In this document: in pieces, positions 5,888 to 25,559 of the stretch
Layout of the letters: each line of letters opens with the position of its first letter
How positions within the stretch are numbered: the stretch's first letter is position 1
Assembly (NCBI GenBank): GCA_034421255.1
Contig: DAOUKN010000210.1
Span: 1-40,620, forward strand
DNA from: Chloroflexota bacterium
GTDB taxonomy: Bacteria > Chloroflexota > UBA11872
Direction of reading: 5' to 3'
DNA: 40,620 bases
Translations under genes and position numbers: made by a program
The notes under the pieces: model-generated
Told to the model about the DNA's origin: nothing
What the model saw: the letters and a program-made list of their open reading frames with translations, nothing else
Databases searched by the model: none

Positions 5888-6627
5888 CTGCACGAAACTT
5901 TGGACGACGGCTCCCGGTCGCGCTGCTAACGGCGCTGTGCGCGTTTGTCCTCACGGGCTGCGTTCGCATCGAGATGACCTTCACCGTGGACGAGGACGGC
6001 TCGGGCACGGCCGCCGTGCTGATGGCGATCGATGAATCGCTGCTCGCGCTCTCCGGCGAATCCGCGGCCGACCTCTTTGGGGACATCGACGAAGAGATCG
6101 ATGACCGGCCGCCGGGCGCGGTCGTCGATGAGTACCGCGCGGAAGGATTCGTCGGGCAGCGCATGAGCGTGCCGGTTCCCGACATGACGGACAACCAACT
6201 GGTTGCGGGGTGGCTGGGCGGCGTGGACGAGAGGGCCGATGTCCTGGACGACGGGGTCGGGTTCGTGCGTGAGGGAGACGGCTGGCGGTTCACGATGGCT
6301 ATCCCGCCGCTGGGCCAGGAGCTGGCCGGCGAAAACGGCGACTTTACTGCCGGCCTAGCGGCCACGATGCTCGATAACGCCATCTTCCGGGTGCGCGTTT
6401 CGCTGCCCGGCGAGATTAGGGAGCACAACGCCGATCGGATCGAGAACGGTGTGCTGGTGTGGGATCTCGACTTGATGGGCGGCGAGCCGCGCCGGCTCAG
6501 CGCTCGCAGCGAGCTGGCGGGCGTGAGTCCGGCTATCGTCGCCGTCGCGATCGGGGCGGGGGTTGCCGTCGTGGTGCTGGCCGCGGCGGCAGCGCGCTCG
6601 GCCGTTCGCGCCCGTCGCAGGGCGTAG
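5884..6627 (+). CDS. LppM-like lipoprotein with C-terminal membrane anchor
   Basis: The ATG overlaps the upstream stop (ATGA at 5884-5887). There is a lipobox, LLTALCAFVLTGC, followed by VRIEMTFTVDEDGSGTA as in LppM/DUF3153-type proteins. The C-terminus has a hydrophobic helix, VSPAIVAVAIGAGVAVVVLAAAAA, plus a basic tail. Confidence 0.5.
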   Translation: MTARNFGRRLPVALLTALCAFVLTGCVRIEMTFTVDEDGSGTAAVLMAIDESLLALSGESAADLFGDIDEEIDDRPPGAVVDEYRAEGFVGQRMSVPVPDMTDNQLVAGWLGGVDERADVLDDGVGFVREGDGWRFTMAIPPLGQELAGENGDFTAGLAATMLDNAIFRVRVSLPGEIREHNADRIENGVLVWDLDLMGGEPRRLSARSELAGVSPAIVAVAIGAGVAVVVLAAAAARSAVRARRRA

Positions 6628-6674: not shown

Positions 6675-7781
6675 TTAGCTCCGGTACCCCGCCGTGTGGT
6701 GGCGGATGTCGTATCGGCCGGGGTAGCGCACGGGGAGGTCGCCTGACTCGATCATCTGGATGAGCGGCGAGGCCATGGTCTTGAGCGGCAGGCGCACGAG
6801 GCCGCGGATGCGGGTCGATTCGTAGATGGCCATCAGGGCTTCCTGCGTCTTGATGGCGAGGTGGGCGTCGCCGCGATGCTCGTCGACCTCGCCCGCGGCC
6901 CAGGCCGCCAGGGCATCGATCTCACGCAGGCGGGCGTCGTCGTAGTAGTCGCCGCAGGCGGGAATGTCGCGCGTGCGTCCGTCGCGGCCCACGATGCGGA
7001 CGGCGTAGTCGGCGCCGCGGCCGTCTTGGGAGACGATGACGAGGCCGTCGGTTCCCACGAGGAGGTGCGTGTGCGCCTCTAGGCCCGGCGCGTCGGGCGT
7101 CTCGCTCTCCAGACCCAGCCGCATGCCGCCGGCCAGTCCGACGACCGCGGCGGCCATCTCCTCGCTGGGCCAGCCGCGCTCCCAGCGGTCCGTCTCGCGC
7201 TGGACGTTGCCCAGCACCCAGTCCACGTCGGGTTCTCCCAGCATGAACAGCATGCGGTCGAGGGCGTGGGTGAGGTGGTTGGTGATGCCGCCGACGGTGC
7301 AGCCGACGCGGGCGAATACGGGCGTGCCGATGTCGCCCGCCGCCACGGCGTCCCGCGCCTGCTCGTAGGCCCGCAGCCAGCGGCCCTGGTGCCCGATGGC
7401 GAGCTTGACGCCCTGCCTGTCACAGGTCTCCAGCATGGCGCGCGCCTCGCCTAGATTGCCGGCCATGGCCTTCTCGCACAGGATGGCGGTGGGCTTGTAG
7501 CGGCTGGCGGCGAGGATCGTGAGCGGCGCGTGGCTGGCCTGCGGGGTGGCGATGCTGAGCACATCGGGCTGCTGCTCGCGCAGCATGGTCTCGAAGTCGG
7601 TGTAGCGGGCCTCCACGTCGTGCTCGTCGGCCAGCGCGTGGCAGCGCGACTCGATGGCGTCGCAGATCGCCACCAGCTCGGCGCGCTCACTGGCGGCATA
7701 GCCGGCGGCATGCCTGCTCCCGATGCGGGCGCCGACGACGGCGGCACGCAGCGGTCGGTGCTGGTCAGACGCGCCGGACAC
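6675..7781 (-). CDS. Gfo/Idh/MocA family NAD(P)-dependent oxidoreductase
   Basis: The N-terminal Rossmann motif is LRAAVVGARIGSRHAAGYA...ELVAICD. EKAMA and the typical dimerisation-domain layout are present. It is a paralogue of the next gene. Confidence 0.8.
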   Translation of the reverse strand: MSGASDQHRPLRAAVVGARIGSRHAAGYAASERAELVAICDAIESRCHALADEHDVEARYTDFETMLREQQPDVLSIATPQASHAPLTILAASRYKPTAILCEKAMAGNLGEARAMLETCDRQGVKLAIGHQGRWLRAYEQARDAVAAGDIGTPVFARVGCTVGGITNHLTHALDRMLFMLGEPDVDWVLGNVQRETDRWERGWPSEEMAAAVVGLAGGMRLGLESETPDAPGLEAHTHLLVGTDGLVIVSQDGRGADYAVRIVGRDGRTRDIPACGDYYDDARLREIDALAAWAAGEVDEHRGDAHLAIKTQEALMAIYESTRIRGLVRLPLKTMASPLIQMIESGDLPVRYPGRYDIRHHTAGYRS

Positions 7782-7784
7782 GGC

Positions 7785-8870
7785 TCAGACCTCCACCGGG
7801 GGATAGACCCCGGCATGGCGGATGTCGTAGGCGCCCGGGTAGCGCACCTGCAACTGGCCGTCCTCGATCATGGCCTCGAGCGGCGAACGGCGGGTCGCGA
7901 GCGGCAGCGTGACGCGTGAGCGCGTGCGCGCGGATTCGTAGATGGCCATGAGGGCCTCGTGCGACGGCTGGGTGCGCGCGATGGACTGCACGTGCTCCGG
8001 TCCGCCGTCAATCCAGGTGGCCAGCTTGTCGACCTGGGCGACCCAGGGATCGACCTCCGGGAACTCCGTCGAGGCGAGATCCATCTCGCCGTGGGCGGAC
8101 GACGTCAGATGCAGGTCGAAGGCCTCGCGGCCGTGCGCCGAGTGGGTGGAGATGCGGAGCACTCCTTCATCGCCCGCGAGCACGAAGCCCCAATTGCCGA
8201 TGGTGGGGTTGGCGCCGATGTCCACGTCGAGCACCAGGCGCGTGCCACCCTCGAAGGCGATGACGCCCCCGCAGAGGTCCTCGGCGGCCAGACCGCGTTC
8301 GTAGCGGTCGGTTTCGCGCTGCACCTGGCCCACGGCCCAGTCGACCGCCGGGTCGCCGAGCATGAAGCGAATGAGGTCGACGACGTGGGAGCCCTGGTTC
8401 AGCAAGCCGCCTTCCTGCACGCTCACGGTGCTGGCGAGAGGCCGCCCGATGGCGCCCTCGGCGATGAGCCGGCGCGCGTGGGCGAACTGGGGGATCTGCC
8501 GTCGCATGTGGCTGATGACGAGCTTGACGCCGTGCTCGTCGCAGGCCGCGGTCATGGCCTCGACGCTGCCCATGTCGGGCGCCATGGGCTTCTCGCAAAT
8601 GATGGCCTTGGGGCGGGCCTCGGCGGCGGCGATCACCATGGGCGCGTGGAATTGGCAGGGGGTGGCGACGCTGACGATGTCGAGCGTCTCGTGCTCCAGC
8701 ATGGCCTCGAGGCTGGTGTAGCGGTGGGGCACGTCGAAGGTGCGCCCAACTTCGTCCAGCAGCGCGGCGTCAAGGTCGGCGATGGCGACGAGGTCGGTCG
8801 TGTTGCTGCCGGTATAGGCGCCTGCGTGCCGGGTGCCGACGCCAAGCCCCACGATGCCGGCGCGATACAT
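7785..8870 (-). CDS. Gfo/Idh/MocA family NAD(P)-dependent oxidoreductase (tandem paralogue)
   Basis: MYRAGIVGLGVGTRHAGAYT...DLVAIADL, EKPMA. The C-terminal region is collinear with the downstream paralogue (EALMAIYES.R.R..V.LPL....SPL..MIE.G.L.VRYPG.YDIRH). There is a 3-nt gap to the next gene. Confidence 0.8.
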   Translation of the reverse strand: MYRAGIVGLGVGTRHAGAYTGSNTTDLVAIADLDAALLDEVGRTFDVPHRYTSLEAMLEHETLDIVSVATPCQFHAPMVIAAAEARPKAIICEKPMAPDMGSVEAMTAACDEHGVKLVISHMRRQIPQFAHARRLIAEGAIGRPLASTVSVQEGGLLNQGSHVVDLIRFMLGDPAVDWAVGQVQRETDRYERGLAAEDLCGGVIAFEGGTRLVLDVDIGANPTIGNWGFVLAGDEGVLRISTHSAHGREAFDLHLTSSAHGEMDLASTEFPEVDPWVAQVDKLATWIDGGPEHVQSIARTQPSHEALMAIYESARTRSRVTLPLATRRSPLEAMIEDGQLQVRYPGAYDIRHAGVYPPVEV

Positions 8871-9044
8871 CGTCGTTGCCTCAATTCAATCCGCCGAGAG
8901 GCGGTCATGGGCCTTGGGCGCAGGGTAGCGCAGTGGGCGCCGGTGACTACGGGCGGAGTAGCGTCCTACTTTGCGTTGCTGCTACGACTGTCTCTCCGAG
9001 CTTCGCGACACTGACGAGGGCAGAGTTCGCATCACGGCCCGGGC

Positions 9045-9306
9045 TCAGTCGCTAGCGCTACCGCTCATGGCGTCGAGGTGCTTGAAAATTCGATCACGCA
9101 GGCCTTCGTCACCGCGCCGGCGCCCAATAGCCACCAAGTCCTCACTGAGCAGGTCTCCCCGTATGAGGTAGTCGGAGTCCTCACGCTGAACAACGGCCAA
9201 ATGGGCAACATCCGTCAGCCCGCGGTTGGGTAGTCGTACCGAACAATGCCCACCCGTCCGCGCCGAATGCGGCAAGCACATTCCCCACGTCGATCTCTAC
9301 GTTCAT
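9045..9306 (-). pseudogene. Small ORF translationally coupled to the HicB-like gene, apparently frameshifted (possible decayed HicA-like toxin)
   Basis: ATG at 9306 overlaps the upstream TGA (TGATG). That frame reads MNVEIDVGNVLAAFGADGWALF... and stops at 9181. A second frame (ORF 9045..9281) continues ...LPNRGLTDVAHLAVVQREDSDYLIRGDLLSEDLVAIGRRRGDEGLRDRIFKHLDAMSGSASD. Joining them needs a 1-nt shift near 9235-9245. The family assignment is weak. Confidence 0.25.
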
Positions 9307-9650
9307 CAGGCGGCCATCGCCGCCAAGGGCTCCTTTTCCCCGGGTACCACTTGTGCCGCACCCACCCACGAGCGCGTCTCCAGATCGAAGTACGACTGAC
9401 CAGACTTCACGTAGTCGTGAGCGGCGTGCCAGGCGACACCAGCCCGGCCAAGTTGGACTTCAAGCTGGCCAAGCTCCCGCGTGTCCTCGATGAATTCCTG
9501 GAGGAGCGTAAAGAAGTTGCTGCGGGCGTCGTCACGCGACCATCCATACGCTGTGAGACCCAGTGGACGAAACCGTGCGGTGTGCAATCCGTCGGGGAAC
9601 GTCTCGTATTCAACGGTCGTCATCACCACCACTTTCGAGCTCCCAGTCAT
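9306..9650 (-). CDS. HicB-like (UPF0150 fold) putative antitoxin
   Basis: 114 aa. RBS GGAGAG lies 4 nt before ATG 9650. VEYETFPDGLHTARFRPLGLTAYGWSRDDARSNFFTLLQEFIED follows the HicB N-domain pattern (x-E-x-E-x-DG-x-A-x-P-LxG-x-x-G-x-T-x-x-EA-x-x-N). It lies in a lower-GC islet. Confidence 0.35.
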   Translation of the reverse strand: MTGSSKVVVMTTVEYETFPDGLHTARFRPLGLTAYGWSRDDARSNFFTLLQEFIEDTRELGQLEVQLGRAGVAWHAAHDYVKSGQSYFDLETRSWVGAAQVVPGEKEPLAAMAA

Positions 9651-11588: not shown

Positions 11589-14500
11589 TCAGCCGGTCTC
11601 GCAGTAGGGCAGACCAAGCTCGACTAGATCACTGTCCGGCACCTCGCGCAACCCCGCGGGAACGCACCCGGTGAATTGGTTGCTTCCGCCGAGATAGAGC
11701 CCGCGCAGATTGGTCAAGTGGCTTAGTTCCGGCGGGATCTCGCCGTGCAGCAGGTTCCCGTCGAGATACAGCCCTTGCAGGTTGGTCAGGCGGCCCAGCT
11801 CGGCTGGGATCGTTCCACGCAGTTGGTTGTCCCAGAGGGATAGCTGCACGAGGTTGGCAAGGCGACCCAGCTCGGCGGGAATCGATCCACTCAGTTGGTT
11901 GCCGGCGAGCGAAAGGCCCCCCAGGTTCGTGAGGCTGCCGAGCTCAGCGGGGATCGGGCCGGTTAGCCGGTTTAGGTCGAGATACAACGCTTCCAAGTTG
12001 GCGAGACGACCCAATGCGGGTGGAATCTCCCCATGCAACTGGTTCCCGGTGAGAAAAAGCCCTCCCAGGTTCGCAAGGTTGCCCAACTCGGCGGGGATGC
12101 GCCCGCCCAACTGGTTGTCGTTGAGGCCCAGCACTTGCAGCCTGGCGAGACCGCCCAGCGTGGCTGGGATTGTCCCGCGCAGGTGGTTGGCACCGAGAAT
12201 CAACACGCGGAGGTTGGTGAGATTCGGGAGGTCGGGCAAGAGCTCCCCATGCAGTTGATCGCTCATGTGGCCCAGTTCCGGCGGGATCGCGCCTCGCAAC
12301 TGGTTGTCGCTGAGGTCCAAGACTTCGAGGTTGCCGAGGCGGCCGAGGTCGGGTGGGATGGTTCCGGTCAACCGGTTCCGGTTGAGTTCGAGCGCCTGCA
12401 GATTGGAGAGGAGGCCAAGCTCTGGTGGGATGTTCCCGACGAGACCGTTCTCCCGGAGCTGCAACCCCGTGACCCGACCGGCGTCGTTGGTGGTGACCCC
12501 GTGCCATTCGTCGAGGGGCGCCTCGCTGAGCCAGTTGGTGCTGTCGGTCCAACTTGAACCGTCGCTGGCGTCGTAGAGCGCGACGAGGGCGGCCCTGTCG
12601 GCGGCGATTGCGAACTCGGCGCAGAACAATAGGCCGGCGTCGCGGAGGTCGCTGTTTGGCAAGAGCCGTAGCTCGTCGGGGATACATCCGACGAAGCGGT
12701 TGCCTCCGCCGAGATTCAGTTCGTTCAAGTGGTCAAGCCGACCCAGCGCGGCCGGAATCTTTCCGCTCAAGAGGTTATGCCGGAGCGACAGGTAGGTCAG
12801 CTTGGCGAGGTTCCCCAACTGGATCGGGATCGCCCCTGTGAGCTGATTGTCCGCGAGCCACAGCACCTCCAGGTTGGCCAGGCGCCCCAACTCGTGCGGA
12901 ATCGGCCCCGTGAGCTGGTTGGATCCGAGCCGGAGATCTTGCAGATTGGCGAGGCGCCCCAGGTCGGGCGGAATAGTCCCGCGCAGTTGGTTCTTCGAGA
13001 GTTCCAGAACCGCCAGTTGCGCAAGGTCGCCCAACTCGGACGGGAGCTCGCCCGAGAGTTCATTGCTTTGGAGGCGCAGGGCGGTTACCTGGCCATCGGA
13101 GTTCGTGGTTACACCGTGCCATTCGCCGATGGGAGCCTCGCCGAGCCAGTGGCGGCTGTTGGTCCAACTCGGACCGTTGGTGGCGTGGTAGAACGCGATC
13201 AGCGCGGCACGATCCTCGGCGCTTTCGCTGAGCCCGCAGGGCCACAGATCGAGATCTTGAAAGTCGTTGGCTTCGATGGCACGCACCGCGGTGGGAATGC
13301 ACCCAGTGAATTGGTTGCCGCCGCTGAGCCGCACGAAGCTCAGGTTGGGGATGCGGCCCAACTCGGACGGGATAGGCCCATGCAGCTGGTTCCCGTCGAG
13401 ACGCAGCCATTCCAGCTTGGTGAGATTGCCCAGCTGGGGCGGGATAGTTCCCTGCAGCCGGTTGTTGCTGAGCTTCAAGGTCCTTAGCTGGGTGAGACCG
13501 CCCAGCTCGGATGGAATTGGACCCTGTAACTGGTTCTGATCCAGCGACAGCCATTCCAGCTTGGTGAGTCGACCCAATTGGCGCGGAATCTCTCCGGTGA
13601 GTTGGTTGTCGCGGAGCCCAAGACTCGTCAGGTTGGCAAGGTGCCCTAGCTCCGACGGAATCTGCCCCGTGAGTCGATTCACATCGATGAAGAGGAGACG
13701 CAATCGGGAGAGGTTTCCCAAATCGGGTGGAATCTCCCCAGACAACCGGTTGTTTGCGAGGTCCAGCAATTCAAGTCTGGAGAGATTTCCCAGTTCGGGC
13801 GGGATGCTCTCGGCAAGCTGGTTGGAACCGAGCCAGAGCAAGACTAGGTTGGCGAGACCTCCCAGGTGGGGTGGAATGGCTTCGCTCAGCTGGTTGCTAT
13901 GGAGGGCCAGCGTCACGAGACTAGTCAAACCGCCGAGTTCCAATGGGATCGCCCCACTCAGGCGGTTTTCTTCAAGCGACAAATCCGTCAGCTTGGTGAG
14001 CTGACCCAGCTCGGCGGGGATGACGCCACTGAGTTGGTTGCGACCGAGGGTGAGGTTTCGCAGCTCGGTGAGACTCCCCAACTCCGGTGGAATCGTGCCC
14101 AGCAACTGGTTGCTGAAGAGATCCAACTCTCGCAGGTCGACCAGGCGGCCAAGCTCAGCCGGAATGCGGCCATGCAGACTGTTGAGGGAGAGACTCAGCA
14201 CCCTCAGGTTGGAGAGATCGCCGAGCTCCGGCGGCATCTGGCCGCGCAACCCGTTGTCGGAGAGGTCTAACACGGTGACTCGGCCAGCGCCGTCGGTGGT
14301 GACGCCGTGCCACTCGCCGACGGGCGCGTCGCTGAGCCAGTTGGTGTTGGTGGTCCAGGTCGGCCCGTCGGTGGCGTGGAAGAGCGCGACGAGGGCAGTT
14401 TTTTCAGCATGGGCCGTCGCGTCCGCGCAGAACGGCACGTCGAGCTCGGTGAGGTCGATGTATGCGACAGCCTGCAGCCGGTCGGGAATGCAGCCCGCGA

Positions 14501-17057
14501 TCTGATTCTCTCCGAGACGAAGCGACTCCAGGTTGCGGAGGCTGCCGAGTTCGGGTGGGATTTCTCCTCTGAGCTGGTTGGCGTCAAGGTGCAAGGCCTT
14601 CAGATTGGTGAGCTGCGACAACTCGACCGGGATACTCCCCAGCAGCGCGTTCTGGCTCAGACGCAGGGATTCCAGAATGTCCAAGTGGCCCAACGCGGGC
14701 GGAATGGTCCCGCTCAGCCGGTTGGCGCCGAGGTGCAAGACCCGCAGATTCGTGAGGCTTGCCAACTCGACCGGGATGTTCCCTCGCAGCGCGTTGTGAC
14801 TCAGATTCAGGGTTTCCAAGGCAGCGAGGTTCTCCAACGCGGATGGGATCGGCCCGCCCAGCTCGTTGCCGCTGAGGTCCAGCACTTCCAGGCTGGTGAG
14901 ATGGCCCAGCGTGGTTGGAATGGTCCCGCGCAACTGGTTGCCACCGAGATTCAACACCTGGAGCTTGGCAAGACTGGGCAGGCCGGGTGCAACCTCTCCA
15001 CTCGGCTGGTCGCCCGCGAGCGCCGGCCGGTCCGAGATGAGGAGCCGGCCCAGTTCCGGCGGGATCGCCCCTCGCAACTGATTGGCGCTGAGGTCCAGGA
15101 CCTCCAGATTGCCCAGTCGGCCGAGGGCGGGCGGGATGATTCCGGCGAGACCGTTCTCCCGGAGCTGCAGCCCCGTGACCCGGCCGGTGGAGTCGAGGGT
15201 GACGCCGTGCCATGCGCCGAGGTGAGCATCGCTCATCCAGTTCGTGCTGTTTTTCCAGTTCGCCCCATTGGTCGCGTGGTAGAGGGCGACCAGCGCGGTG
15301 CGATCGACGGCGGCGGTTTCGGGGCAAAACGGCAGCTCAAGCCAGGCGAGGTCGCTCTGCGGCACGTTTTCCAACGGCGCGGGGATGCACCCGGTGAGCT
15401 GGTTGCTCCCGGCAAGCCACAGCGCCTGCAGATTGGAGAGATTGGCCAGCTCGGGCGGTATGGGCCCTTGCAGCTGGTTGCCGGAGAGGATCAGCTGTTC
15501 CAGGTTGGCGAGCCCGGCCAGCTCAGGCGGTATGGCGCCCTGCAGTTGATTGTCGTTGAGATAGAGCGATTGCAGATTGAACAGGCGGCCGAGCTCGGGC
15601 GGGATCTCCCCCTGCAACTGGTTTCCGGAGATCCAGAGCGACTCGAGGTGGCTGAGGCGGCCCAACTCGGGCGGGAGCTGCCCGCTCAACTGGTTGTTGC
15701 TGAGTTCCAGCCATACCAGATTGGGAAGGCTTCCCAATTCAGGCGGTATGGGTCCGCTGAGCTGGTTTCCGCCCAGTCCCAGCGACGTCAGGTTGACGAG
15801 GCGGCCCAGCTCGGGCGGGATCTGCCCGTGGAGGTGATTCTCGCCGAGGATCAAGCGATCGAGGTTTGTGAGGCGACTCAACCTGGGCGGGATCTCTCCA
15901 GTCAGCCCGTTTTCCCCGAGCCACAAGGCCGTGACGCGTCCACTCTCGTCGGTGTTGACCCCATACCACTTGTCAAGGGACGCCTCGCTGAGCCATCCAC
16001 TGCTATTGATCCAGTTCGGTCCGTCGGTGGTGCGGTAGAGCGCGACCAGCGCGGCCCTGTCCGTGGCGGCTGAGGGCGTCACAGCCGCGTCGGGATCGGC
16101 GGCGCAGAGAGCCAGCCCGAGCTCGTCGAGATCATTGATCGCGACGTCCCACAACTCAGCCGGGATGCATCCGGTGAATTGGTCGTTGCCGCCGAGCTGC
16201 AGCACCTCCAGGTTGGCGAGGCGGACCAACTCGGCGGGGATCGTTCCGGTGAGCAGGTTTTGGTGCAGCTGGAGCTCGCTCAGGTGCTCCAGGCGTCCCA
16301 ATTCAGCGGGGATCGCGCCGGTCAACTGGTTGTGGTCGAGGAGGAGCCGGCGCAGGTTGGCAAGACGACCCAACTCGGGCGGGATCGCGCCGCTCAGCTG
16401 ATTCCCCGAAAGCGCGAGCGTTTCCAGCTCGGAGAGGTCGCCCAGCTCGGACGGTAATGCGCCGGTCAACTGGTTGGCATCGAGTTGGAGCGCGCGCAGG
16501 TTGGCGAGACGGCCCAGCTCCGGCGGGATCACCCCGCGCAATCGGTTCGCGGAGAGGTTTAGCCCTCGGAGGTTCGCCAGGCGCCCGAGATCGGCCGGGA
16601 GTTCACCAACCAATTGGTTTGCCCGGAGCGACAGTTGGCTCAGACTGGTGAGACTGCCCAGTTCGGCGGGGATGGTCCCACTCAGCTGGTTATCGCCGAG
16701 CCCCAAGACGGTCAGGTTGGCCAGCCGGCCCAGCTCGGGCGGCAGCTCCCCGCTGAGCCGGTTGCTGTTGAGCCAGAGCTGTTGCAGGCCGGCCAGACGC
16801 CCGAGCTCGGATGGCAGCGCTCCGCCCAATTGGTTTCCGCTAAGGTCGGCCACGCGCAGGTTGGCCAAACTGCCGAGCGCGGGCGGGAGTTCGCCAACCA
16901 ATCCGTTTTCGGCGAGGCGGAGCTCCGTGACTTGCCCCTGGACGTCCGTGGTGACGCCGTGCCACTCGCCGAGCGGCGCCTCGCTGAGCCAGTTGGTATT
17001 GGCGGTCCAGTTCGCGCCGTCAGTCGCCTGGTAGAGCGCGACCAGCGCATCCCGATC
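11589..17057 (-). repeat. Coding tandem repeats: 72-nt LRR units organised in six supermodules
   Basis: Module starts, counted by hand from the protein, are aa 34, 366, 618, 918, 1315 and 1520. These correspond to nt 17057, 16061, 15305, 14405, 13214 and 12599. Repeat counts per module are 11, 8, 10, 14, 6 and 11, plus one truncated unit. Confidence 0.85.
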
Positions 17058-17156
17058 AGTCGAGGGCGTTTGCGCTGAAGCCGTCGTCGGCGCTCGGCCC
17101 GTCGCGGCGAACGCGGCAACGAGCATAAGCGTCAAGGCGACGGCGCGAACGGTCAC
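11589..17156 (-). CDS. Giant secreted leucine-rich-repeat protein: six concatenated plant-type LRR modules (about 60 LRRs)
   Basis: 1855-aa ORF. GTG start with AGGAGG 8 nt upstream and a signal-like N-terminus, MTVRAVALTLMLVAAFAATG. There are six modules. Each has an N-cap DRAALVALYxATxGxxW..NWLSxAPLxEWHGVTT....GRVTxLxL. Each then has 6-14 repeats of the 24-aa unit LxxLxxLxLxxNxLxGxIPxELGx. Each ends in a C-cap GGNQFTGCIP-x-C. Confidence 0.9.
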   Translation of the reverse strand: MTVRAVALTLMLVAAFAATGRAPTTASAQTPSTDRDALVALYQATDGANWTANTNWLSEAPLGEWHGVTTDVQGQVTELRLAENGLVGELPPALGSLANLRVADLSGNQLGGALPSELGRLAGLQQLWLNSNRLSGELPPELGRLANLTVLGLGDNQLSGTIPAELGSLTSLSQLSLRANQLVGELPADLGRLANLRGLNLSANRLRGVIPPELGRLANLRALQLDANQLTGALPSELGDLSELETLALSGNQLSGAIPPELGRLANLRRLLLDHNQLTGAIPAELGRLEHLSELQLHQNLLTGTIPAELVRLANLEVLQLGGNDQFTGCIPAELWDVAINDLDELGLALCAADPDAAVTPSAATDRAALVALYRTTDGPNWINSSGWLSEASLDKWYGVNTDESGRVTALWLGENGLTGEIPPRLSRLTNLDRLILGENHLHGQIPPELGRLVNLTSLGLGGNQLSGPIPPELGSLPNLVWLELSNNQLSGQLPPELGRLSHLESLWISGNQLQGEIPPELGRLFNLQSLYLNDNQLQGAIPPELAGLANLEQLILSGNQLQGPIPPELANLSNLQALWLAGSNQLTGCIPAPLENVPQSDLAWLELPFCPETAAVDRTALVALYHATNGANWKNSTNWMSDAHLGAWHGVTLDSTGRVTGLQLRENGLAGIIPPALGRLGNLEVLDLSANQLRGAIPPELGRLLISDRPALAGDQPSGEVAPGLPSLAKLQVLNLGGNQLRGTIPTTLGHLTSLEVLDLSGNELGGPIPSALENLAALETLNLSHNALRGNIPVELASLTNLRVLHLGANRLSGTIPPALGHLDILESLRLSQNALLGSIPVELSQLTNLKALHLDANQLRGEIPPELGSLRNLESLRLGENQIAGCIPDRLQAVAYIDLTELDVPFCADATAHAEKTALVALFHATDGPTWTTNTNWLSDAPVGEWHGVTTDGAGRVTVLDLSDNGLRGQMPPELGDLSNLRVLSLSLNSLHGRIPAELGRLVDLRELDLFSNQLLGTIPPELGSLTELRNLTLGRNQLSGVIPAELGQLTKLTDLSLEENRLSGAIPLELGGLTSLVTLALHSNQLSEAIPPHLGGLANLVLLWLGSNQLAESIPPELGNLSRLELLDLANNRLSGEIPPDLGNLSRLRLLFIDVNRLTGQIPSELGHLANLTSLGLRDNQLTGEIPRQLGRLTKLEWLSLDQNQLQGPIPSELGGLTQLRTLKLSNNRLQGTIPPQLGNLTKLEWLRLDGNQLHGPIPSELGRIPNLSFVRLSGGNQFTGCIPTAVRAIEANDFQDLDLWPCGLSESAEDRAALIAFYHATNGPSWTNSRHWLGEAPIGEWHGVTTNSDGQVTALRLQSNELSGELPSELGDLAQLAVLELSKNQLRGTIPPDLGRLANLQDLRLGSNQLTGPIPHELGRLANLEVLWLADNQLTGAIPIQLGNLAKLTYLSLRHNLLSGKIPAALGRLDHLNELNLGGGNRFVGCIPDELRLLPNSDLRDAGLLFCAEFAIAADRAALVALYDASDGSSWTDSTNWLSEAPLDEWHGVTTNDAGRVTGLQLRENGLVGNIPPELGLLSNLQALELNRNRLTGTIPPDLGRLGNLEVLDLSDNQLRGAIPPELGHMSDQLHGELLPDLPNLTNLRVLILGANHLRGTIPATLGGLARLQVLGLNDNQLGGRIPAELGNLANLGGLFLTGNQLHGEIPPALGRLANLEALYLDLNRLTGPIPAELGSLTNLGGLSLAGNQLSGSIPAELGRLANLVQLSLWDNQLRGTIPAELGRLTNLQGLYLDGNLLHGEIPPELSHLTNLRGLYLGGSNQFTGCVPAGLREVPDSDLVELGLPYCETG

Positions 17157-17828: not shown

Positions 17829-19181
17829 CTAGCAGATTGGCAGGCCGAGAGCCTGGGCGTCGTGTGGCAGAAGGTCCTCCCAGTTTGCGGGAATGCACCC
17901 CGTGAATTGATTGCCCCCGCTGAGCGACAGCCATCTCAGATCGGCAAGGCCGCCAAGCTCGGAAGGGATTTCTCCGCTCAGCCGGTTGTTACTGAGCGTG
18001 AGTGACTGCAATTTGGAGAGGCGGCCCAACTCGGGTGGGATCGCCCCTTCCAGCAGGTTCTTCTGCAGGTGCAACACCTGCAGATCGGCGAGGCTGCCGA
18101 GCTCGGCAGGGATGGCGCCGCTCAGTTGATTCTCGAAGAGAGCCAGCGCCAGCAAGTTGGAGAGGTTGCCCAGTTCGGGTGGGATCGCGCCGGTGAGCTG
18201 ATTCGCAAAGAGCCACAGAGTCCGCAGATTGCCGAGGTCTCCAAGCTCCGGGGGTATCTGGCCGCTCAACTGATTGTCGCTGAGCACCAGCGATGCCAGT
18301 TTGGAAAGGTGGCCGAGCTCCGACGGTATCGTCCCGGCGAGCTGGTTCTTGTTGAGCAGGAGCTCATCCAAGCTGGAAAGGCTGCCCAACTCCGGAGGAA
18401 TCCCCCCATCGAGCGCATTCCGGGCCAGCCACAGCTTCTTCAGGCTGGAGAGGTTGCTCAACTCCGACGGGATGTCCCCGCTGAGCTGGTTCGCGTGCAA
18501 GTGCAACACTTCCAGGTTTGAGAGACGTCCAAGCTCGGCGGGTATCGGTCCGCTGAGTTCGTTGCCATTGAGCAGCAGCTCGACAAGATTGGCGAGGCGG
18601 CCCAGTTCGGCTGGGATCGTGCCGCTGAGTTGATTGTCCTTGAGCCGCAGTTGTTCAAGCTCGACCAAGCTGCCGAGCTCGGGTGGCAATACGCCGCGCA
18701 ACTGGTTGTTACTGAGCCACAGCGCCGTGACCCGGCCGGCCGCGTTCGTCCTGACGCCCAACCATTTCGCGATCGGCTCCTGACTGAGCCAGTCGCGGTT
18801 GTTCTTCCAGTTGGCGCCGTCGGTGGCCTGGTAGAGGGCGACCAGCGCGGCCCTGTCATTGGCATCGACCGGCGACGGCGTCTGGGCCGGCGTCGGCAGC
18901 GTGGTTGCGACGGGCGTCGGCGTCGCCGTCGGAACTTCGGTCGGCGTCGGCGTATGAGTAGGCGCAGGAGTCTGGGTCGGCGCGGCTGAAGCGGTCGGCG
19001 TTGCGGCCTTGTCAGGCGGTGGGGTTGGCGTGGGCGTGTGGTCTGCCGGCCCGGGCGGCTCGACCGTGGCAGTCGCCGGTGCCGGCTCCGCCGTGGCAGG
19101 CGGTTTGGCAGGTTCGTCGCACCTGGCCGCCATGAGCGCAATTGTGACCACGACTACAAGCGCGGCGGCCCGGATGGTCAC
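17829..19181 (-). CDS. Secreted single-module plant-type LRR protein with Pro/Thr-rich linker
   Basis: The ORF track starts it at 19271. In-frame GTG 19181 (GGAG 7 nt upstream) gives MTIRAAALVVVVTIALMAA. This parallels the giant paralogue's N-terminus, and both share the ccaGTGACC start context. Then come a PT-rich linker, the N-cap NDRAALVALYQATDGANWKNNRDWLSQEPIAKWLGVRT..GRVTALWL, 12 LRRs and the C-cap GGNQFTGCIP...LPIC. Confidence 0.85.
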   Translation of the reverse strand: MTIRAAALVVVVTIALMAARCDEPAKPPATAEPAPATATVEPPGPADHTPTPTPPPDKAATPTASAAPTQTPAPTHTPTPTEVPTATPTPVATTLPTPAQTPSPVDANDRAALVALYQATDGANWKNNRDWLSQEPIAKWLGVRTNAAGRVTALWLSNNQLRGVLPPELGSLVELEQLRLKDNQLSGTIPAELGRLANLVELLLNGNELSGPIPAELGRLSNLEVLHLHANQLSGDIPSELSNLSSLKKLWLARNALDGGIPPELGSLSSLDELLLNKNQLAGTIPSELGHLSKLASLVLSDNQLSGQIPPELGDLGNLRTLWLFANQLTGAIPPELGNLSNLLALALFENQLSGAIPAELGSLADLQVLHLQKNLLEGAIPPELGRLSKLQSLTLSNNRLSGEIPSELGGLADLRWLSLSGGNQFTGCIPANWEDLLPHDAQALGLPIC

Positions 19182-19308
19182 TGGCCGGCTCCGCCGCGCA
19201 GGCCGTCGTGCGTCGAGCTGCGCGGACCCCGGGGCCTCAACGGTGCGCGACCGATGGCAGGTATGGCGCAAGCTCTCGCGGAGGAAAACAGTCGAAGGGC
19301 AACGCGGT

Positions 19309-22362: not shown

Positions 22363-23268
22363 CTACCAGTAGTCCTCCGTGATCACCTGCGACTCGCGGC
22401 CCGTGGTGAGAAAGCCCTTGCCGGCGAGAATCTCCTTCACGTCGCTGATCATGCCCGGATTGCCGCACAGGTAGGCCGCGCTGCCGGCGACCGAGAGCCG
22501 CTCGCGCACCGCGGCGTGGACCTCGGCGGGCAGATAGGGCGGCACGCGCCCGATCTGGGGTTCGCCGCAGACCATCCGCAAGACGTCATTGAGCCGGCCG
22601 CGTCCCATGTGCTCCTCGTATCCGGGGTCTTGCTCGGGACGGCTGACGACGGGCACGTAGATCAGCTCGAATCCGGCGTCGTCGGCCAGCGCCTCCAACT
22701 CGGCGCGGTAGCCCAGTTGGCTGGCGTAGGACACGCCGTGCAGCACCGTGAGACGCCGCGGCACATCGCCGTCCTGCTGGTATTCGTGCCAGAAGTCGCG
22801 GGCCATCGAGACGAACGGGGCGAGCCCGGTTCCGGTGGCGGCGCACACGAGATCGCGCTGCGTGGTCCGCGAGGGCACGAAGCGCCCGGCCGGGCGCGGC
22901 ATATAGAGCACCTCGTCGCCCGGTGCGTGACGCCAGAGCGCGCCGGTGAACACGCCCTGGCGATTGCTGCCGTCCTCGTCTGCGTCCCGGACCAGGATGA
23001 CGTAGAACTCGAGCGACGTGCGCTCGCGCGACGCCGAGGCGATGGAGAACTGTCGCGGGCGCGGGTCGTCCGCGGGCTGGTCCCAAAAGGCCAGTTGGAC
23101 GTACTGGCCGGCCTCGAACTCGGCGAACGGCTCGCCGTCGGGGCGCTCGATCGTGAAGATCGCAATGTCGGGGTCATCCAGCAGCTCCCAAGTCGCCAAC
23201 CGCGCGCTTTCCATGCGCTCTCGAATGTCGCGGCGTCGGCGGCGCGGAGTGGGCGGAGCGTCGGTCAC
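22363..23268 (-). CDS. Ferredoxin/flavodoxin--NADP(+) reductase family flavoprotein (FNR-like)
   Basis: The FAD-binding R-x-F-S motif is RQFSIAS. The NAD(P)-binding motif is ATGTGLAPFVSM. LCGNPGMI is present and the C-terminus ends in aromatic residues (EDYW). Confidence 0.75.
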   Translation of the reverse strand: MTDAPPTPRRRRRDIRERMESARLATWELLDDPDIAIFTIERPDGEPFAEFEAGQYVQLAFWDQPADDPRPRQFSIASASRERTSLEFYVILVRDADEDGSNRQGVFTGALWRHAPGDEVLYMPRPAGRFVPSRTTQRDLVCAATGTGLAPFVSMARDFWHEYQQDGDVPRRLTVLHGVSYASQLGYRAELEALADDAGFELIYVPVVSRPEQDPGYEEHMGRGRLNDVLRMVCGEPQIGRVPPYLPAEVHAAVRERLSVAGSAAYLCGNPGMISDVKEILAGKGFLTTGRESQVITEDYW

Positions 23269-23304
23269 TGCTGGTCACCGGGTCTGGTCATGGCGTCAGG
23301 ATAG
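23258..23304. repeat. Direct repeat, left copy (decayed ispD 3' end plus genuine FNR start)
   Basis: gcgtcggtcactgctggtcaccgggtctggtcatggcgtcaggatag. It matches 24818-24864 at 37/47 positions without gaps. The terminal 13 nt, ggcgtcaggatag, are identical. Confidence 0.75.
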
Positions 23305-23441
23305 CCTGCTCCATACTCAATACGGAGATGCGGGTCCCCGCCGCCGCTCCCGCGCCACCACGCTCTCCCTCGTCTCCCCACCACCATTCCAGTGAACGAG
23401 GAATCCACCGTCCCGACGGCAACGCGGCTCACTAGCCTGTA

Positions 23442-23471
23442 TTGACAGCGGCATGCGCACGCAAATATAAT
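23442..23471 (+). promoter_or_regulatory. Consensus sigma70-type promoter: TTGACA - 18 nt - TATAAT
   Basis: ttgaca gcggcatgcgcacgcaaa tataat. Both hexamers are perfect. It lies about 70 nt upstream of the orphan gene's RBS (GGGAGG) and ATG 23545. Confidence 0.5.
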
Positions 23472-23544
23472 TACAACTTATGTTTAGTGTAGACTAACGC
23501 CTAGGGCGCAATCAGCGGGTAAGTTGGCGACTCGGGAGGCAACG

Positions 23545-24612
23545 ATGAGCACCGGCGATAAGTCAACCTCGTTCTTCAAGCTGCTTGCTCGCAGCATACC
23601 GACCGAAGAATATCTTCAACTCGTGGTCACGCTCGCCTTGGAACATCAACGGCAATCGAAATCAAAACATCCTTCGCTGAAACGCCTGAGGACAGCGATC
23701 AACAACAGCGGGCTGGAGATTGAGGGTTGGCGCAGCAAGGCTGCGGCCAGCGCGCCAACACCGCGCCTTGTCACCCCCGTATCGGAACTTATGCCGCATT
23801 CCAACGACCTTGCCGAAGCCGTGTTCAGCGTTTGGGCCGACTCTCACGAAGTCTTGCGCCTGGTTGCCTCCAAGCACCTCGATCAGCTTGACCCGGAGAT
23901 TTGCCGTTACGCGGATGACGACGGCCAAATCTCGGACAGTTGGGATCCGGTGATATTGGATATCGAGATCGGAGATATCATTAATTTCCTCTATAAAGAT
24001 GATATCTATCTCATGCTGTGCTATCTGTCGGGATTACTACCGCCTACAGGCGATGAATATCCCGAGTACGACGAGCATGCGCAGGCTGACGATGTCACGT
24101 CCCTTGGAGGCACGGTGTTCGGGGAGTGGATCGAGCATTTGCAGTCGCTTCCCCAAGACGCGCCGGAATGGGATCACGTCAAAGCGTTCGAGCGGTCACT
24201 CTCGAACGTGATTCAAACGAATGAAAACGAACGATTGCGAGTCGCCATGCTCGACATCGACATCGACGAAATTAGGACGAAGTTTGCCGAGGAACTACAC
24301 TATTTGAAACGGAATATTGATGCCTGGTCGATGCCTCGACTTCCGCATTCGCAGGTCGACCCGGTGGTGGACCTCGTCGGTCGCTTGCTGGAGTCGTTGG
24401 AGGAATATCGACCACTCTGCCAACTGGCGGCCAGCCGAAGCGAGGAGGAGGCGCGACGGGCGCAACGGGACGAGTTGGAGCCGCGATTGCGGCGACTGAT
24501 TGACGACATCGAGGCGCGCATGTGCGGCGGTGAGGCGCCGCATTTAGCTGACGGATCGGACGACGGGTCCTCGGCGGCGGCGGGCGCGGTGCCCGAGGCG
24601 CCGTCCACATAG
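23545..24612 (+). CDS. Hypothetical protein (orphan, acidic, no recognisable domain)
   Basis: The ORF track starts it at TTG 23524. ATG 23545 is preceded by GGGAGG at 5-nt spacing, giving 355 aa. The coding-like composition differs from neighbouring genes (rich in D, E, I, L, K, N), and G+C is lower. I recognise no motif. Confidence 0.6.
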   Translation: MSTGDKSTSFFKLLARSIPTEEYLQLVVTLALEHQRQSKSKHPSLKRLRTAINNSGLEIEGWRSKAAASAPTPRLVTPVSELMPHSNDLAEAVFSVWADSHEVLRLVASKHLDQLDPEICRYADDDGQISDSWDPVILDIEIGDIINFLYKDDIYLMLCYLSGLLPPTGDEYPEYDEHAQADDVTSLGGTVFGEWIEHLQSLPQDAPEWDHVKAFERSLSNVIQTNENERLRVAMLDIDIDEIRTKFAEELHYLKRNIDAWSMPRLPHSQVDPVVDLVGRLLESLEEYRPLCQLAASRSEEEARRAQRDELEPRLRRLIDDIEARMCGGEAPHLADGSDDGSSAAAGAVPEAPST

Positions 24613-24817
24613 GCCGCCCGATACCACGCCGTAGCGCAAGCAGCCCTCCAAGTCGAGGCCAAAACGCGCCAAGGTGTGGGCGTCCTCCGCGCCAAAGGCT
24701 GAGACCAGCAGCAAATCAAATGTGTCCCTTCACCGCAAGGCAATTGAAATGAGCGCGAGCGGTCGTCGTGAGCCGCGTTCCGCCGCTCAGCACGCCGCCA
24801 AAGACGCCCAAGCCCCG

Positions 24818-24864
24818 GCGTCAGTCACTGTTGTTCCTCGTGTGCGGGCACGGCGTCAGGATAG
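24818..24864. repeat. Direct repeat, right copy (genuine ispD 3' end plus decayed FNR-start-like GTGACTGACGCC)
   Basis: gcgtcagtcactgttgttcctcgtgtgcgggcacggcgtcaggatag. It contains the ispD stop (tca at 24825-24827) and its last 13 codons. Confidence 0.75.
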
Positions 24865-25559
24865 TCGGGCGTGGCCGCGACGCGGGCCCGTGCGGCGCCC
24901 AGGTCCGCCGGGCGCGTGATCTTGACGTTGCCCGCGTCGGACTCGAAGACGTGCACGGGCAGGCCCTCGTGCTCCAGCACCGCCACGTCGTCGGTGAAGT
25001 CGGCCAGGCGATCTCGATTGCGACGGTGGGCCTGGAGCAGGGCGTCCAGCGGACCGATCTGGGGCGTCTGGGCCAGCCACACCTGGTCGCGCGGCAGCGT
25101 GCGGTCGACCCGGCCCTCGGGCGTGACGAGCTTGACGGTGTCGACGGACGGCACGGCGGCCACCGCCGCGCCGTGCGCGCGCGCCGCCCGGACGCCGCGC
25201 GCGATGATGTCCGGGGTCACGAAGGGACGCGCGCCGTCGTGGATGGCCACAAGCGCCGCGCCGCCGTCGGCGAGCGCTTCGAGTCCGCACAGCACCGACC
25301 CGGCGCGGGACGCGCCGCCCAGCACCACACGCGTCACCTTGGTGAGCCGTGCCGCGCGAACGACGTCGGCGAGCTGGTCGCGGTTGGCCGGGCTGGTGGT
25401 CACGACGACATGGCGGATTTCTGGTGCTTGCTCGAAGGCGCGCAGGCTCCAGACGATCAACGGCGCGTCGCCGAGGAGCGCCAGCAGCTTGTCCTCGCCG
25501 CCCATGCGGGTTGCGCCGCCCGCGGCCAGCACCACGGCGTCCACTGGACCCGTGGTCAT
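24825..25559 (-). CDS. ispD: 2-C-methyl-D-erythritol 4-phosphate cytidylyltransferase
   Basis: VDAVVLAAGGATRMGGEDKLL, VAIHDGARPFV and VDTVK are IspD motifs. The ATG overlaps the radA stop (ATGA). Confidence 0.9.
   Translation of the reverse strand: MTTGPVDAVVLAAGGATRMGGEDKLLALLGDAPLIVWSLRAFEQAPEIRHVVVTTSPANRDQLADVVRAARLTKVTRVVLGGASRAGSVLCGLEALADGGAALVAIHDGARPFVTPDIIARGVRAARAHGAAVAAVPSVDTVKLVTPEGRVDRTLPRDQVWLAQTPQIGPLDALLQAHRRNRDRLADFTDDVAVLEHEGLPVHVFESDAGNVKITRPADLGAARARVAATPDYPDAVPAHEEQQ

Follow-up and report, generated by a model that had tools for sequence, protein, structure and literature searches.

A probable eroded junction duplication flanks a decayed HEC-07-like defence cassette between ispD and an FNR-like gene in Chloroflexota

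Introduction

Insertion with long target duplication was described for restriction-modification (R-M) genes by Nobusato et al. in 2000 (as cited, ref. 37, in Furuta, Abe and Kobayashi, 2010, PMC2853133). Furuta et al. (2010, NAR 38:2428; PMC2853133) recognized such events by a repeat of more than 30 bp that is present as a single copy in a related genome, an insert of less than 20 kb without mobility genes, and homologues of both the R and the M gene within that insert. Published long target duplications of 46-47 bp come from H. influenzae and T. thermophilus, and double-strand breakage has been proposed as their origin, with no mechanism given (PMC2853133). Here we analyse a locus of this kind in a Chloroflexota bacterium: a segment of low G+C content that lies between ispD and an FNR-like oxidoreductase gene and is bracketed by direct repeats of the ispD/FNR junction, in a 40,620-nt stretch of contig DAOUKN010000210.1 (assembly GCA_034421255.1), hereafter the window. 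We consider it probable that the 47-nt repeats are what erosion has left of a junction duplication of ~83 nt, and that they flank a decayed HEC-07-like cassette that arrived in a single old insertion and has since been inherited mostly vertically. The whole account is comparative inference from uncultured genomes; the window locus is called WIN, and the other loci are labelled L001-L039.

Judged by its sequence, the locus is an insertion with long target duplication in form. The repeat occurs once at the empty site (4 loci) and twice where it flanks the insert (9 loci), and it exceeds 30 bp, with 47 nt in the window, in line with the published 46-47 bp, and 77-83 nt in L026, L003 and L028. The insert of 1513 nt holds one open reading frame (ORF) and no mobility genes, differs in G+C from the genome and carries cargo of a defence class. 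Several features set it apart from the published cases. The host belongs to an uncultured Chloroflexota lineage, and in place of an R-M pair there is a single RelE-domain (HEC-07-like) gene, truncated in the window; a fusion of N6_N4_Mtase with a weak Mrr_cat match is present in L001 only, as the passenger of an insertion sequence (IS). The target is exactly an overlapping stop/start junction, each copy of which rescues one gene. The event is also old: the locus has eroded, its repeats show concerted evolution, and in L001 a second cargo occupies the frame.

Long and variable target duplications have also been reported for IS1630 (IS30 family) of Mycoplasma fermentans (ref. 83 as cited in PMC2853133), and Furuta et al. 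describe them there as much shorter than their own long target duplications. The window locus shares with IS1630 a target duplication far above the usual 2-14 bp, but IS1630 has a transposase and terminal inverted repeats, neither of which was found at the insert. DDE transposons and ISs differ from it likewise, since it shows no transposase domain, no inverted repeats at its ends and a duplication of 47-83 nt rather than 2-14 bp. Integrase-dependent islands and cis-mobilizable elements (CIMEs) are flanked by attL and attR at the 3' end of a conserved gene. As in CIMEs, the direct repeats here regenerate the 3' end of the target, and a fixed slot with variable cargo exists as empty and occupied alleles; unlike in CIMEs, no copy was found to have a recombinase gene within or beside it, the junction of two protein genes serves as the target where islands use a tRNA gene, and there is no sign of present-day excision.

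The cargo, for its part, resembles HEC-07, a single-protein defence candidate that reduced plaquing and was defined in the context of the Hma (helicase-methylase-ATPase) system (Payne et al., 2024, bioRxiv 10.1101/2024.01.29.577857; models in PADLOC-DB v2). In its C-terminal domain, which includes a conserved histidine, HEC-07 is similar to the RelE-family toxin HP0892, and its N-terminal part has AdoMetDC-like and thioredoxin-like domains (bioRxiv 10.1101/2024.01.29.577857).

Results

The two junction repeats lie in direct orientation at 23258-23304 (the FNR-proximal or F copy) and 24818-24864 (the ispD-proximal or P copy). They match at 37 of 47 positions without gaps, and their last 13 nt (GGCGTCAGGATAG) are identical; the original prediction, made from the DNA letters of the window without database searches, had these coordinates and counts right. 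Read on the minus strand, the P copy consists of the last 13 ispD codons and the stop (24825-24864), followed by a relic of the FNR start, GTGACTGACGC. That this is the real 3' end of ispD, as predicted, is confirmed by the gene itself (24825-25559, minus strand; PF01128, 1.9e-47), which lies upstream of the slot. The F copy combines a relic of the ispD tail with the genuine start of the FNR-like gene (22363-23268, minus strand; PF00175 NAD_binding_1), the first gene downstream of the slot. Just upstream of the FNR GTG start, this relic forms the predicted eight-codon ORF, MTRPGDQQ-TGA (23265-23291, minus strand; codons ATG-ACC-AGA-CCC-GGT-GAC-CAG-CAG-TGA), whose stop overlaps the GTG.

A match of this quality was not produced by composition in shuffled sequence. 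Across 30 dinucleotide-preserving shuffles of the window, with the leucine-rich repeat (LRR) gene left out and a spacing of 100-5000 nt, the best 47-nt direct match was 31-34, and 37 was reached in 0/30, so that the similarity claimed in the original prediction lies beyond all 30 shuffles. Only two other loci in the real window contain 37/47 matches, both through paralogy: the tandem GFO_IDH_MocA oxidoreductase genes (6675-7781 and 7785-8870, minus strand; match at 6803, spacing 1116) and the ClpC N-terminal repeat. The LRR genes, which encode proteins of 1855 aa (11589-17156, minus strand) and 480 aa (17829-19271, minus strand; PF00560/PF13855, E down to 1e-151), give rise to dense 72/144-nt periodic DNA repeats; eukaryote-like repeat proteins such as these are typical of sponge symbionts.

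Relatives of the window contain both the empty and the occupied form of the site. A protein scan with FNR (one genome per species) yielded 25 loci, all in Chloroflexota metagenome-assembled genomes (MAGs), nine of them in a close clade (FNR 84-97% identical) and 16 in a distant clade (~69%). FNR follows ispD directly, with no insert, in L004, L005, L008 and L009, where stop and start overlap as GTGA or TGATG (CAGTGATGG or CAGCAGTGAC). These four genomes contain the motif GGCTATCCTGACGCC once; the window, L001, L002, L003, L006 and L007 contain it twice, at the ispD end and just 5' of FNR, with 1.3-3.5 kb between the copies. Look-ups of full-length homologues of the cassette gene added L026 and L028, with two junction copies each, and the partial L029, and a metagenome scan with FNR, which returned only three loci (one a duplicate of the L003 type), added L034. 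The two-copy loci number nine (WIN, L001, L002, L003, L006, L007, L026, L028 and L034), and an nhmmer profile of the junction finds exactly two copies per occupied locus, one per empty locus and none elsewhere in the window. Because single-copy empty sites stand against two-copy occupied loci in the relatives, this comparison establishes the ancestral contiguity of ispD and FNR and the duplication of their junction. The four empty relatives bear out the proposal that the two genes were once coupled by an overlap. The insertion is not private to this genome: the slot is occupied in at least eight related MAGs or contigs, among them a complete long chromosome (L007, OZ244789), with an inheritance that appears mostly vertical. 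Across the loci the slot ranges from empty (four) through cassettes that are full-length (three), split (one) or truncated (four) to replaced cargo (one), and all close homologues of the cassette gene whose context was examined lie in this ispD/FNR slot.

The inserted segment (23305-24817, plus strand; 1513 nt), apparently an eroded defence cassette, contains an intact 355-aa ORF at 23545-24612 on the plus strand, preceded by a Shine-Dalgarno sequence, GGGAGG, at 23534-23539. This ORF has no Pfam, PHROG or PADLOC match and had been taken for a single orphan gene. Its homologues correct that view: it represents the N-terminal, helical module of a HEC-07-like protein of ~590 aa, full-length orthologues of which occupy the slot, and it lacks a PADLOC match because the RelE-like domain has been deleted. 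Ten close homologues are 70-88% identical to it; four of these are 581-604 aa long and occupy the same slot on the same strand. In the long form, the 355-aa part is followed by a low-complexity linker and a ~150-aa C-terminal domain that ends IGYIGQHQRT, within which His582 is invariant in alignment A1. The C-terminal part matches PADLOC HEC-07 (P0002, 2.6e-16; P0144, 6.9e-23), as does a 693-aa form from the distant clade (the L013 form; 8e-23). The match to the HEC-07 hidden Markov model (HMM) spans the C-terminal ~115-230 residues and profile positions ~320-553 only.

An AlphaFold2 model of P0002 (predicted local distance difference test score, pLDDT, 72.6) shows a confident, all-helical N-domain (residues 10-326), a disordered linker (330-440) and an alpha/beta C-domain (pLDDT 80-94). 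A Foldseek search of this model against the PDB returned many RelE, HigB, YoeB and HP0892 chains, all with E>0.7, and no match for the helical N-domain. Because no Foldseek match is significant, our assignment of a RelE-like fold to the C-domain rests on the PADLOC HMM. Pfam matches on the full-length forms were rejected as coiled-coil noise, as were the coiled coils that alone came out of a PDB-sequence profile search.

A profile built from the truncated forms found 294 clusters (50% identity) among 1.84 billion representatives, and most are proteins of ~600 aa with the HEC-07 C-terminus. The N-domain also starts ~2000-aa proteins with AAA/STAND-type ATPase domains (P0220, P0231, P0233 and similar) and stands at the N-terminus of proteins with cadherin-like domains (P0227, P0253, P0204) and of one helix-turn-helix protein (P0226). 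From these varied C-terminal partners across the 294 clusters, we regard the N-domain as a modular and uncharacterised domain family without a Pfam model.

The likeness to HEC-07 is thus concentrated at one end of the protein. The full-length orthologues in the slot match its HMMs (E 1e-16 to 1e-23) and keep the invariant C-terminal histidine, and an Hma system surrounds the distant homologue P0023, which lies between an SNF2-type helicase gene and DUF1156 and DUF499 genes. Unlike in HEC-07, the N-terminal two thirds are an unrelated, all-helical region without a Pfam or PDB match, the window copy lacks the RelE-like domain altogether, and the slot lies between ispD and FNR, not in an Hma system. 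Searches of phage sequences gave no match, and plasmids matched the C-domain only, weakly. One such plasmid, pEP1 of Acidovorax temperans (L037), encodes at 8437-9339 a 300-aa hypothetical protein whose C-terminus is ~30% identical to the RelE-like domain; its gene adjoins a HipA toxin-antitoxin pair and a phospholipase-D-like gene.

The loss of the C-domain in the window can be followed base by base. Aligned to L026, the window has a premature TAG at 24610-24612 where L026 reads on, and a 2-bp deletion just after it. These open a decay zone (24610-24817, plus strand) that continues as an out-of-frame relic of the linker (…APKAETSSKSNVSLHRKAIEMSASGRRE…) and ends in a deletion of ~640 nt of L026 sequence, with which the entire RelE-like domain, its 3' region and the inward-facing part of the ispD-side repeat have disappeared. 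The deletion junction of L002 is identical to that of the window. L006 and L007 also lack the C-domain, with junctions different from the window's; in L003 it is split off as a separate 147-aa ORF, and in L026, L028 and L029 it is intact. The toxin-like domain was therefore lost independently at least three times. The N-domain ORF, in turn, is open in all cassette loci. Pairwise ratios of nonsynonymous to synonymous substitution for this domain are 0.17-0.59, and the value for WIN and L002, which have the truncation in common, is 0.21; the ORF remaining in the window is apparently still constrained.

Length differences among the repeats follow the state of the cassette. Local alignments of the two copies (matches/length) give 74/83 in L026, 66/81 in L003 and 60/77 in L028, then 61/67 in L006, 49/~52 in L007, 44/45 in L001, 37/47 in the window and 31/42 in L002. 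The longest repeats belong to the three loci that keep the C-domain, L026, L003 and L028, and all three end at the same point, near FNR codon 15. Because of this common end, we conclude that the original duplication was ~83 nt long, beginning 13 codons ahead of the ispD stop and reaching ~15 codons into FNR, and that the shorter repeats are erosion products. The 47 nt that the original prediction took as the repeat length is therefore secondary, since relatives with the full gene have 77-83 nt and the inner edge of the window's P copy (24817/24818) is a deletion scar.

The repeat copies also resemble each other within genomes. There they are on average identical at 40/47 positions, compared with 37.2/47 between positional counterparts in different genomes, and both copies in L007 carry the allele of its empty sister L009. 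Every FNR-side copy (9/9) retains an eight-codon ORF, free of indels and with its final QQ-TGA on the FNR start, which may have a role in FNR translation. A ~62-nt hairpin element resembling repetitive extragenic palindromic (REP) sequences (…CCCTTTCCCTCAGGGGGAAAGGG…GGGAATGACGGATGGGGGCGGGCT) lies directly 5' of the F copy in L002, L003, L007, L028 and L029, inserted at GGCT at the repeat boundary; the window, L026 and L006 lack it. L028, which is in reverse orientation, additionally carries a 25-28-nt sequence four times (6050-6080, 3911-3936, 1405-1429 and 1241-1268), distributed across radA, the cassette region and the sequence that precedes FNR.

Occupied and empty genomes intermingle in a tree built from the FNR-cysS flank. 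The tree of the 5' half of the cassette gene broadly follows this flank or host tree; that of the 3' half is incongruent and groups L026 with L007. Within the cassette gene of the window, a tract of ~590 nt (23583-24170, plus strand) is ~99.5% identical to L026, whereas neighbouring sequence is 80-90% identical, which would reflect either recent recombination between lineages or mixing of strains in assembly. Comparison of WIN with L001 and L026 for recombination tracts in the flanks gave nothing striking beyond the junction bins. Since the 5' half is host-like, the 3' half incongruent and the tract nearly identical, the cassette appears to be old, mostly vertically inherited and mosaic through inter-lineage recombination, with strain mixing as a caveat. 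We infer a single ancient insertion with precise losses through the repeats.

The closest relative, L001 (flanks 96% identical), holds a different cargo. Between its 45-nt repeats (44/45) lie 3.4 kb of unrelated DNA with two parts: on the ispD side a 5'-truncated, degenerate IS1595-family transposon (2520-~4770), which includes an intact N6_N4 methyltransferase gene with a weak Mrr_cat match, and next to it a unique gene for a pentapeptide-repeat protein. The edge at the P copy is a deletion into the transposase gene. At the F copy, the boundaries of the two cargos fall within 2 nt of each other (G/GCTATCC and C/CGGCTATCC, with the slash at the boundary). The IS1595 relic is below the Pfam threshold and was accepted after intact transposons with the same methyltransferase had been found; it is a secondary passenger with its own type of 8-bp target site duplication. 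A third, older junction copy in L001 was suggested by a repeat search but was unsupported by the nhmmer junction profile. Intact copies of this transposon, with its ~550-aa N6_N4 DNA methyltransferase passenger, occur at L038 3941-6844 and L039 3947-6902, with 25-nt inverted repeats GGGGATTATATACAAAGGTCACATT and 8-bp target site duplications TACTTAGT and TCTGTTGA. The passenger methyltransferase has thousands of relatives, and the weak match to an Mrr-like nuclease recurs in some of them besides L001.

Members of the distant clade (L010-L025) are organized differently. A conserved 332-aa gene without a Pfam match parts ispD from FNR, and FNR has its own upstream region. A variable zone directly ahead of FNR contains a 635-707-aa HEC-07-like gene, 32% identical to the cassette gene and in the same orientation, or a 233-239-aa S-adenosylmethionine-dependent methyltransferase gene, or nothing. 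No junction repeats were found in this clade, nor around the out-of-slot homologues L030 and L033. The original prediction had named relatives with the orphan gene and no duplicated junction as a finding that would speak against it; the distant-clade homologue touches on this but does not refute the prediction, as another gene separates ispD from FNR there. The region upstream of FNR is thus a variable spot in both clades. Nearby, L013, L015 and L017 have one or two Uma2-family endonuclease genes, and L019 has two tetratricopeptide-repeat proteins.

The insert is poorer in G+C than its surroundings (0.587 compared with 0.69-0.70 in the flanks), with a lowest 200-nt window of 0.485; the original prediction was right about the direction, and the difference is milder over the whole segment than its hand counts of 37% and 55% had indicated. 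The predicted perfect promoter is present: a promoter-like TTGACA-18-TATAAT at 23442-23471 (plus strand) matches at 12/12 positions and is kept in all cassette-bearing relatives. A weaker promoter-like site on the minus strand, TCTACA-18-TATATT (23464-23493; 9/12), shares its -10 with the cassette promoter, being the reverse complement of the TATAAT region. We suggest that this is a putative divergent or bidirectional promoter that may feed FNR-ispF-cysS. No terminator-like site was found, and the earlier view that the insertion severs the FNR operon goes further than the sequence shows.

Pfam, PHROG and PADLOC searches found no integrase or transposase in the window's insert, as the original prediction had stated, and no terminal inverted repeats were found at its ends. 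Rfam and tRNA scans gave nothing at the insertion site; the only tRNAs in the window are two tRNA-Ser at 32.3-32.5 kb. A small hairpin, CTCCATA-CTCAA-TACGGAG (23309-23327, no strand assigned), abuts the F copy and is kept in relatives as CCCCGTA-TCGAG-TACGGGG. We rejected it as a structured element, with one compensatory change among six sequences being too weak.

Discussion

We propose that a single-gene cassette of ~2.2 kb was inserted at the ispD/FNR junction in an ancestor of this Chloroflexota clade and that ~83 nt of the junction were duplicated in the process. The ancestral cassette would have had its own promoter, an orientation opposite to the host genes and a lower G+C content. Its product of ~590 aa would have joined a novel helical N-domain, through a disordered linker, to a C-domain with a RelE-like RNase fold, of the kind found in the anti-phage family HEC-07. 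Duplication of the junction spared both host genes: ispD kept its full 3' end on one side, and FNR its translation-initiation region, with the relic ORF, on the other. The duplication may have formed by single-crossover integration of a circle carrying a copy of the junction, or by fill-in of a long staggered break. The cassette would then have passed mainly vertically, with recombination between lineages, as the repeat copies were partly homogenized within genomes. In cassette-free lineages, recombination between the repeats would have removed the cassette and restored the contiguous junction. In the window, a stop codon, a 2-bp frameshift and the ~640-bp deletion have cost the cassette its toxin-like domain and shortened the ispD-side repeat by ~36 nt at its inner end.

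Several observations weigh against this proposal. The unrelated cargo of L001 abuts the F copy within 2 nt of the boundary of the HEC-07-like cassette, a coincidence that a site-specific process explains more readily than a single random event does. The repeat copies cluster by genome and not by position, and gene conversion or repeated re-integration is therefore needed. By parsimony, three to four gains explain the flank tree about as well as three or more losses do. The 32%-identical homologue directly upstream of FNR in the distant clade, where no junction repeat accompanies it, blurs the deep history. Neither a recombinase nor a transposase, terminal inverted repeats or a circular form has been seen, and the step that made the duplication is unobserved. 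Finally, the RelE fold of the C-domain comes from the PADLOC HMM, the numerous RelE-type Foldseek matches all being non-significant. The F-edge coincidence in L001 provides the main argument for a site-specific process or a pre-formed frame and keeps the rival readings alive.

The first of these, which we hold to be unlikely, is that the repeats are att-like sites of a cassette that is still mobile and has no integrase of its own, as in CIMEs, in integrative mobile elements exploiting Xer (IMEX) or in integrons. A recombinase encoded elsewhere would recombine the chromosomal junction with a ~45-83-nt copy of it carried by a circular cassette, so that different defence cassettes enter and leave at one nucleotide. 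Such traffic would account for the common boundary of two unrelated cargos, the interleaving of occupied and empty genomes and the greater likeness of repeat copies within a genome than to their positional counterparts elsewhere; the coincident repeat end in L026, L003 and L028 also fits, as does a target at the 3' end of a conserved gene, which is where integrative islands usually insert. Set against this, no recombinase was found in any of the occupied inserts (9/9) or among ten large ORFs tested in the 40-kb window. All close homologues with an examined context sit in this one slot, flanking repeats are absent from the more distant homologues at other loci, and the 5' half of the cassette gene has a tree that follows that of the host. 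The cassette also decays in place, with a deletion common to WIN and L002, which speaks against frequent turnover. A single alternative cargo is known, and its P-side boundary is a deletion into an IS.

Taken further, the ispD/FNR junction could be a dedicated slot at which unrelated defence genes exchange at one nucleotide by means of the 45-83-nt junction copy that they carry. We think this improbable. Its catalyst would be a trans-acting recombinase or host recombination, an integron-like exchange of immune genes that do not bring a recombinase of their own, to which we likewise give only a small chance. If such a slot did exist, the duplicated junction would be at once an att site and a device that keeps two essential genes of an isoprenoid operon intact.

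A two-step history, in which replication slippage first produced a tandem junction duplication as a neutral spacer and foreign DNA entered later by illegitimate recombination, seems to us very unlikely. The slot would be tolerated only because the duplication keeps both genes intact. A frame older than its cargo would explain why the two copies start at one and the same nucleotide whichever cargo they flank, and the F-copy boundary has taken further small insertions, namely the ~62-nt REP-like element flanked by GGCT at five loci, just as the IS1595 transposon landed in the slot in L001. Yet the intermediate that this history predicts, a cargo-free pair of adjacent junction copies, is seen in 0/13 close-clade loci, and two rare events are needed rather than one.

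That the repeats reflect chance or a metagenome-assembly artefact around a resident low-G+C gene is almost certainly wrong: although an exact match of 13 nt would by itself be expected by chance given this composition (an estimate) and all genomes are MAGs, this reading is refuted by the comparative data, namely the duplicated junction in nine independent assemblies, including the complete long chromosome of L007, and the single-copy empty sites in four genomes, while 37/47 was reached in none of the shuffles.

Genome comparisons have revealed insertions with long target duplication since 2000, still without an explanation of how they arise. The locus analysed here adds a new phylum and a defence cargo other than R-M genes. 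It offers a natural series in which the slot is empty, full-length, split, truncated or replaced and the repeat stands at ~83 nt or is eroded. It illustrates a way for foreign DNA to enter the overlapping stop/start junction of essential genes with neither harmed. The locus further records how a toxin-type immune gene decays: the RelE-like effector was lost independently at least three times, while the N-terminal module stayed open and, apparently, constrained.

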